A DNA stretch of 64,000 nucleotides from Escherichia coli (GTDB lineage: Bacteria; Pseudomonadota; Gammaproteobacteria; Enterobacterales; Enterobacteriaceae), in assembly GCF_001677475.2 (NCBI RefSeq), contig NZ_CP015229.1; one strand, given 5' to 3'. Every line of letters starts with the position of its first letter. The first letter of the stretch is position 1. This document shows positions 15,667-16,073 of this stretch, in pieces. A program made the translations under genes and the position numbers. The notes below the pieces were generated by a model. It searched no databases. It saw only the letters and a list, made by a program, of their open reading frames with translations, and was not told the origin of the DNA.

Positions 15667-15748
15667 CCGAGGTAAAGTCTCCCCAAACCAAATTTCCACG
15701 CGCTATCGAAACGCCACTCCATTAGCTGCAATTTGAGCAAGCAAAGGG

Positions 15749-15776
15749 TTAGAGTGTCTCGTTTTTGTAAAGTTCC
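15749..15776 (-). promoter_or_regulatory. sigma-E-dependent promoter (rpoE P2-like)
   Basis: On minus strand GGAACTT - 16 nt - TCTAA, matching the sigma-E consensus, about 80 bp upstream of the rpoE start. Confidence 0.65.
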
Positions 15777-16049
15777 GTAACGCATCTGTTTTTGTTTGTC
15801 ATGCTGTAGACGGATCATTATCTATCATTATAAGTCTACAGAATCTGAACATCGCATTATCTGTGTAGAAATGCCCATTTAACTGCCTGAAGAGTAACCC
15901 AACGGCCTTTTTATTTCACCACCTAATCCTCCACCAGCCAGTAACTTCTCTTTTTCTCGCCGCCCTGAGTCAGCGTGTTTAGCCACTGTAACAAATATTA
16001 AAATAGCAGGTGTTTAATCGCACAACATGATGCTATGCTGACCAAACCG

Positions 16050-16067
16050 TGTTTAGTAAATTAAACA
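16050..16067. promoter_or_regulatory. candidate NadR (NAD box) operator at the nadB start region
   Basis: Palindrome TGTTTAgtaaatTAAACA immediately upstream of the nadB ATG, with a further TGTTTA at 16011-16016; resembles the NadR half-site motif but the spacing was not checked against the consensus. Confidence 0.35.
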
Positions 16068-16073
16068 AAGAAA

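Follow-up and report, generated by a model that had tools for sequence, protein, structure and literature searches.

Sequence and Literature Evidence for an Autoregulated Sigma-E Promoter Upstream of rpoE in an Escherichia coli Chromosome

Does the gene for sigma-E in this E. coli chromosome carry a promoter that is read by sigma-E itself, and what else is controlled from the DNA between rpoE and the divergently transcribed nadB? A preliminary description of the window (the whole 64-kb stretch of DNA analysed), made from the letters of the sequence, had placed a consensus sigma-E promoter on the minus strand upstream of rpoE, equated it with the autoregulated rpoE P2, and credited the same 400-bp region with driving nadB on the other strand.

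Our analysis identifies the site as the sigma-E-dependent promoter by which the E. coli rseD-rpoE-rseA-rseB-rseC operon is positively autoregulated, an identification to which we assign a probability of about 0.97. Nothing was found that contradicts this explanation, and both the start site and its sigma-E dependence have been measured in K-12, whose sequence is identical here. The promoter has been known, mapped, and studied since 1995, and its confirmation adds no new biology. The reading made from sequence proved exact to the base, and the 407 bp of the control region are now placed on window coordinates: rseD, an open reading frame (ORF), together with the six promoters of rpoE, the promoter of nadB, and its NadR operator. 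Also noted were two side leads: a sigma-54 element carried by about 19% of E. coli genomes, and an invariant complementarity between the 5′ end of the sigma-E transcript and the rpoE start codon.

Genome Context

The 551 bp around the promoter match 5425 of 5426 complete E. coli genomes, in one copy each and always on the chromosome, and the matched region is annotated in them as rseD, rpoE, and nadB; the window is E. coli chromosome. A window coordinate equals the K-12 MG1655 (NC_000913.3) coordinate minus 2,694,346, and the offset is the same whether taken from the rpoE or from the nadB start codon. Genes on the minus strand follow the order lepA, rseC, rseB, rseA, rpoE, and rseD; beyond rseD lie nadB (plus strand), then trmN (minus) and srmB (plus). 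The predicted RpoE, NadB, and RseD proteins all score above curated NCBIfam equivalog cutoffs.

15091–15666, minus strand: rpoE (sigma-E, 191 aa), ATG at 15666; TIGR02939 RpoE_Sigma70, 328.7 bits (cutoff 236)
15663–15818, minus strand: rseD, 51-codon rpoE leader peptide ORF, RefSeq annotation; NCBIfam NF033697 leader_RseD, E = 3e-30, 104.2 bits (cutoff 35)
16074–17696, plus strand: nadB (L-aspartate oxidase, 540 aa), ATG at 16074; NF006567, 1048 bits

The divergent rpoE and nadB start codons are separated by 407 bp (15667–16073); this divergence is conserved among the species loci, most of which have 384–460 bp between the two start codons. On the other side of rpoE, the rseA start lies 33 nt past the end of the gene. 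The window is identical to K-12 from about 15640 to about 15968, a stretch that includes the promoter, the start site, the 5′ UTR, and rseD. Six positions differ from K-12 over the aligned stretch, five of them between rpoE and nadB in the nadB-proximal part.

The Sigma-E Promoter

The minus strand at 15749–15776 reads GGAACTTTACAAAAACGAGACACTCTAA, and both direct reading and a pattern search recover the claimed GGAACTT-N16-TCTAA there, base for base. The motif lies 83–110 nt upstream of the rpoE ATG (15666) and has the following parts.

15789–15793, minus strand: A5 tract at −51 to −47; AAAA columns about 90% or more conserved across species
15770–15776, minus strand: −35 element GGAACTT, consensus 7/7 (PMC1312014; PMC6648896); rseD codons 15–17
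15754–15769, minus strand: 16-nt spacer TACAAAAACGAGACAC between −35 and −10; 16 nt is the strongly preferred length (PMC1312014)
15749–15753, minus strand: −10 element TCTAA, 4/5 of the consensus TCAAA, with the TC present; rseD codons 22–24

The match to the sigma-E consensus claimed upstream of rpoE is thus borne out in both elements and in the spacer. TCTAA is one base off TCAAA, and the base before the −10 is C, not the G of “GTC.” Region 4 of sigma-E reads GGAACTT, and pockets in region 2 capture the T and C of the −10 (PMC6648896). Conserved A/T elements are found at −48/−49 of sigma-E promoters (Rhodius et al., PMC1312014), and the A5 tract is likely to act as a proximal, UP-element-like A/T block.

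GGAACTT-N16-TCTAA has this sole match in the 64 kb, both strands included, and a relaxed pattern (GAACTT-N15–17-TCNAA) again gives a single match at the same site. A functionless chance match to a short consensus has in its favor that just 12 bases are specified and that 0.35 matches per window would be expected of the relaxed, 11-base pattern. Against it stand the shuffled controls (0 of 100 dinucleotide-preserving shuffles match), the expected location, orientation, and distance to rpoE, the start mapped there, and conservation in about 112 species and 97% of E. coli genomes (see below); we regard a chance origin as extremely improbable. The sequence, its uniqueness, and its geometry are direct observations on the window.

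Mapped Start Site and Published Evidence

The check proposed in the preliminary description was a comparison with mapped rpoE transcription starts, and it favors the promoter: the K-12 start at 2710088 corresponds to window 15742, at the preferred sigma-E geometry. This start (NC_000913.3 2710088) was obtained by SMRT-Cappable-seq of K-12 for full-length rpoE-rseA-rseB-rseC (b2573–b2570) transcripts (PMC6131387, Supplementary Data 2), and it was moved to the window through 100% identical sequence.

15742, minus strand: transcription start G of the rpoE-rseABC transcript (K-12 2710088)

A 6-nt discriminator separates TCTAA from G15742, the −35 to +1 distance is 27 nt, and this start 76 nt upstream of rpoE gives a 76-nt 5′ UTR. 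Among 28 mapped sigma-E promoters, a 16-nt spacer is strongly preferred, the discriminator is 5/6 nt, the −35 to +1 distance is 26/27 nt, and the start is a purine (Rhodius et al., PMC1312014); the rpoE promoter conforms to every one of these rules of spacer, discriminator, distance, and start base. It likewise falls within the ranges expected of a sigma-E promoter (spacer of 15–19 nt, start 5–6 nt after the −10 and 25–28 nt after the −35).

Independent publications point to the same position. Reviews put the start of the sigma-E-dependent, autoregulated rpoE promoter at −75, which is window 15741 (PMC8103513; PMC6358824), 1 nt from the SMRT start at −76. A Tn10 insertion at −90 has been placed 3 nt before the −10 of rpoEP6, the most proximal promoter, transcribed by the sigma-E holoenzyme (PMC7461557). 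In window coordinates the insertion is at 15756 and the first base of the −10 at 15753, an exact fit. In the older K-12 numbering the rpoE start is presumably 2708034, which would place the genomic SELEX (gSELEX) peak of the sigma-E holoenzyme about 100 nt upstream, on the promoter. Its position, obtained in vitro with the purified holoenzyme, is 2708134 in that numbering, within the rpoE-nadB spacer (PMC5493296). Activity of rpoE P6 tracks the free sigma-E released from RseA (PMC6358824). It is on this literature that sigma-E dependence and autoregulation rest.

Reviews, mapped start, and Tn10 insertion therefore agree with the identification as the autoregulated rpoE P2, “P2” being the 1995 name of a promoter called P6 since 2016. 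The K-12 rpoE P2 (Rouviere 1995; Raina 1995), now rpoEP6 (Klein et al. 2016), is identical to the promoter described here and has the same flanking genes. The six rpoE promoters of Klein et al. 2016, as listed in a review, start at −381, −327 (shared by P2 and P3), −218, −153, and −75, with P6 (−75) corresponding to the old sigma-E-dependent P2 (PMC8103513); in current usage “P2” is a distal, sigma-54/QseF-dependent rpoE promoter (PMC6358824).

Conservation across Species

A degenerate pattern for RpoE residues 21–33 recovered 120 loci from one-genome-per-species contigs, nearly all of them from Enterobacterales. GAACnn-N15–17-TCnAA is present in 112 of the approximately 117 loci with enough upstream sequence, always 107–114 nt before the ATG; the search pattern itself imposes GAAC and TC-AA, so the evidence lies in the frequency of the match and its constant position. 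The spacer is 16 nt long in 111 of the 112 promoters. Roughly five loci lack the motif, and the four that were checked are one-base −10 variants.

Spacer and discriminator sequences vary freely across species, apart from the last 3–4 nt of the spacer, which are conserved; the third base of the −10 may be T, C, or A, with TC..AA kept. The most conserved stretches are the A-tract (−51 to −47), the −35, the spacer end with the −10, transcribed bases 1–9, and the ribosome-binding region. Among E. coli genomes, 5256 of 5425 carry exactly these 53 bp over the promoter (15736–15788); for a distal 53-mer of the control region the corresponding count is just 518 of 5424.

The rseD Leader ORF

One correction to the preliminary description concerns the nature of the control region, which is not purely intergenic: the sigma-E promoter sits wholly within rseD, whose stop codon overlaps the rpoE ATG (ATGA, 15663–15666). 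Since the promoter is internal to the ORF, sigma-E transcripts lack the rseD start codon.

This position raises the question of whether the motif is kept as RseD coding sequence (codons 15–24), its match to the sigma-E consensus being incidental. The motif does lie entirely within the annotated ORF, and rseD is reportedly translated and translationally coupled to rpoE (Yakhnin and colleagues, 2017). Published work cites the naming of the operon with rseD and describes rpoE promoters as “upstream of, or within” rseD (PMC8595263). The ORF itself is much less constant than the promoter, however. It has 51–54 codons in Escherichia, Salmonella, and Citrobacter, and long ORFs occur only there and in a few others (loci L003–L122); the frame has 19–35 codons, starting downstream of the promoter, in Enterobacter, Klebsiella, Photorhabdus, Pantoea, and Sodalis, and closes after 8 codons in Kluyvera and Pseudocitrobacter, yet motif and position are retained in all of these. 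Conserved bases cluster in the two promoter elements rather than spreading over codons, the spacer between them is variable, and a start is mapped at exactly the expected distance. Constraint on RseD coding is largely refuted as an explanation of the motif, and we consider it very improbable.

The residues shared by RseD C-termini coincide with the nucleotide-conserved ribosome-binding region of rpoE. Across the leader, the rseD frame is open in 69% of 101 distinct species sequences, and the other two frames in 28% each. A conserved “short RseD” of 19–21 residues, encoded by sigma-E transcripts and starting at the internal Met33 (ATG 15720–15722), was also considered but is not general: only 43 of the 101 sequences have an ATG in frame beyond the start.

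Other Promoters of the Operon

Five further rpoE promoters (P1–P5), absent from the preliminary description, share the 407-bp interval upstream of P6. The review positions −153 and −218 are exactly the SMRT starts 2710165 and 2710230.

15819–15832, minus strand: P5, perfect TATAAT at 15827–15832; start 15819 = K-12 2710165 = −153
15883–15884, minus strand: P4 start, −218 in the review (PMC8103513); K-12 2710229/2710230 (PMC6131387)
15993–16019, minus strand: P2/P3 distal region, shared start at approximately −327, window approximately 15993/15994 (PMC8103513); putative −24/−12 assignment

P5 has no recognizable −35, and from its start at 15819 a single nucleotide precedes the rseD ATG (15818), so P5 mRNA would be essentially leaderless for rseD. 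An extra SMRT start for rpoE-rseABC, K-12 2710154, falls at window 15808 (minus strand), 10 nt inside rseD and outside the review’s six promoters.

With so many starts, the sigma-E promoter could be real but minor, the level of rpoE being set in this strain mainly by the sigma-70, sigma-S, and sigma-54 promoters P1–P5. Six promoters have been described (PMC6358824; PMC8103513), and SMRT starts were recorded at 15808, 15819, and 15883/4 besides 15742 under non-stress growth. We think this somewhat unlikely; it would in any case complement the identification of an autoregulated sigma-E promoter and does not exclude it. The Tn10 insertion at −90, which disconnects rpoE from all sequence beyond that point and thereby disrupts the sigma-E promoter, cut rpoE mRNA 10-fold (PMC7461557), an effect that is not apportioned between promoters because the insertion also removed P1–P5.

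The distal region differs between E. coli alleles. A sigma-54-type GC is present at 16006–16007 (minus strand), and the GG expected at 16018–16019 reads GA here; the window has GCGATTAAACACCTGCT at this place, and the 105-bp segment contains no GG-N10-GC elsewhere. K-12 (locus L002, 4353–4366) carries GCGGATAAACACCTGCT at the right distance, its sole GG-N10-GC fitting that start. At the position of the K-12 GG the window reads GCGATT and other sampled E. coli read GCGAAT or GCAAAT, and GG-N10-GC for the −327 start is absent from every other species locus examined. A K-12 33-mer containing the sigma-54 element occurs in 1043 of 5426 complete E. coli genomes (about 19%). This distribution suggests that the RpoN/QseF-dependent rpoE P2 of K-12 may be allele-specific.

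The rpoE coding sequence itself harbors the other sigma-E promoter of this locus, rseA P3 (15286–15320, minus strand).

15293–15320, minus strand: rseA P3 elements, −10 GTCAGA at 15293–15298, 16-nt spacer, weak −35 CGAACCC at 15314–15320
15286, minus strand: rseA P3 start, K-12 2709632, 228 nt before the rseA ATG (PMC8595263; PMC6131387)

A SMRT start reported as “novel” for rseB-rseC transcripts, K-12 2709034, corresponds to window 14688 (minus strand), inside rseA (PMC6131387).

Proposed Mechanism and Related Systems

Under outer-membrane stress, the anti-sigma factor RseA is degraded and sigma-E set free. Region 4 of sigma-E in the holoenzyme would bind GGAACTT (15770–15776), and region 2 would melt the DNA at TCTAA (15749–15753), holding the T and the C in protein pockets, with initiation at G15742. 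The resulting transcript consists of the 76-nt leader followed by rpoE, rseA, rseB, and rseC. Because rpoE and rseABC are cotranscribed, induction would amplify sigma-E and at the same time resupply its inhibitors. The outcome would be positive autoregulation with built-in negative feedback, atop sigma-E-independent expression from P1–P5 by other sigma factors.

The Pseudomonas algU-mucAB and Bacillus sigW-rsiW operons are autoregulated ECF sigma/anti-sigma operons, each with its own promoter directly upstream. The rpoE operon resembles them in coupling positive feedback to resynthesis of the inhibitor, and it has the features expected of such an operon: its own promoter upstream of rpoE, and reads from 2710088 that span b2573–b2570. 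Beyond this general scheme, the E. coli locus has the leader ORF rseD, five more promoters, and the divergent, separately regulated nadB. Other promoters of the sigma-E regulon (rpoH P3, degP, rybB, micA, and rseA P3) likewise have GGAACTT-N16-TCAAA, a 5/6-nt discriminator, and A/T-rich upstream sequence (PMC1312014); unlike them, the rpoE promoter combines a perfect −35 with TCTAA, lies within a small ORF, and drives the gene for its own sigma factor.

The Leader of the Sigma-E Transcript

15667–15741, minus strand: 5′ UTR of the sigma-E transcript; rpoE Shine-Dalgarno GGAG at 15680–15683 within a predicted hairpin

The 5′ end of the transcript, GCUUGCUC (15735–15742), is complementary to GAGCGAGC (15657–15664) at the rpoE start codon, the latter comprising the G of the AUG and the next seven bases (codons 2–3 and the base that opens codon 4). 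Neither arm varies among 91 distinct species sequences, whereas the interior of the leader diverges. rpoE codons 2–6 each use one codon in 97%–100% of species, compared with 40%–90% for most later codons. The helix has a predicted probability of about 1 in the sigma-E transcript and of 0–0.75 in transcripts of P4 or P5 length, depending on the modeled transcript end. A Shine-Dalgarno/anti-Shine-Dalgarno hairpin is predicted at 15665–15688, also with a probability of about 1 in the sigma-E transcript, in which the Shine-Dalgarno GGGG pairs with CCUC.

Invariance of the arms leaves no room for covariation, and none was seen in the leader helices; the outer helix is unvarying save for single changes compatible with wobble pairing. 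Controls with shuffled interiors form the outer helix in 88% of cases, so structure prediction adds nothing beyond the complementarity of the invariant arms, and the single-sequence fold of the E. coli leader is unexceptional (z = −1.6). On this modeling we offer, as a speculative and rather unlikely proposal, that the sigma-E start point may be set to make GCUUGCUC the exact 5′ end of the mRNA, the terminal clamp and the hairpin hiding the ribosome-binding site specifically in the autoregulatory transcript. If so, the clamp would close the whole 76-nt leader, and the transcriptional positive feedback would be damped, or made conditional, at the level of translation or stability. Such a clamp may already have been described in the literature on leader RNAs.

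The nadB Promoter and NadR Operator

The claim that nadB is driven from the same 400-bp region is upheld by a K-12 nadB start at 16045 and by a perfect NadR operator beside it.

16031–16045, plus strand: nadB promoter, extended −10 TGcTATGCT at 16031–16039; start 16045 = K-12 2710391 (PMC6131387)
16050–16067, plus strand: NadR operator TGTTTAGTAAATTAAACA, perfect consensus match; +6 to +23 of the nadB transcript, 7–24 nt before the ATG
15976–15993, plus strand: second, imperfect NadR-like box TGTTTAGCCACTGTAACA, two mismatches, 74 bp from the main operator; abuts the P2/P3 start

A generic sigma-70 promoter and terminator scan of 15600–16150, which recognizes neither sigma-E promoters nor promoters that lack a −35, found nothing there; the nadB promoter has no good −35, and this is why the scan met no full −35/−10 pair at nadB. 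The NadR consensus is TGTTTA-N6-TAAACA (PMC2330245), and the operator at 16050–16067 is the only site in the window that matches it with no mismatch. Most Enterobacteriaceae loci have the identical 18-base operator, central six bases included, 19–27 nt before the nadB ATG. Other NadR-repressed promoters of enterobacteria (nadA-pnuC and pncB) carry the 18-bp palindrome TGTTTA-N6-TAAACA at the promoter, and the main operator of nadB shows no difference from them. In Salmonella, NadR binds the nadB promoter, as seen by EMSA and ChIP, and represses it according to expression data (PMC12421817); on the published evidence, nadB is repressed by NadR at 16050–16067.

The TGTTTAG half-site of the second box is kept at approximately −98 from nadB in Escherichia, Citrobacter, Salmonella, Kosakonia, and some Klebsiella, and the DNA where the −10 of rpoE P1 (start about 16047) would lie falls under the main operator. 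From these positions, NadR might influence the distal rpoE promoters.

RNA Features Elsewhere in the Window

A search against Rfam gave no family in the rpoE-nadB intergenic region. AsrC, the antisense RNA of rseC mRNA, was found at 12660–13491 (plus strand; 507 bits), opposite rseC and the lepA-rseC spacer. Other matches at gathering score were the ohsC sRNA (6054–6131), the rncO leader (9663–9877), a complete rRNA operon with spacer tRNA and StyR-44 (31717–36720), RyfD (39717–39855), the Phe leader (43161–43286), and tmRNA (61864–62226), all of them expected in this part of the E. coli chromosome.
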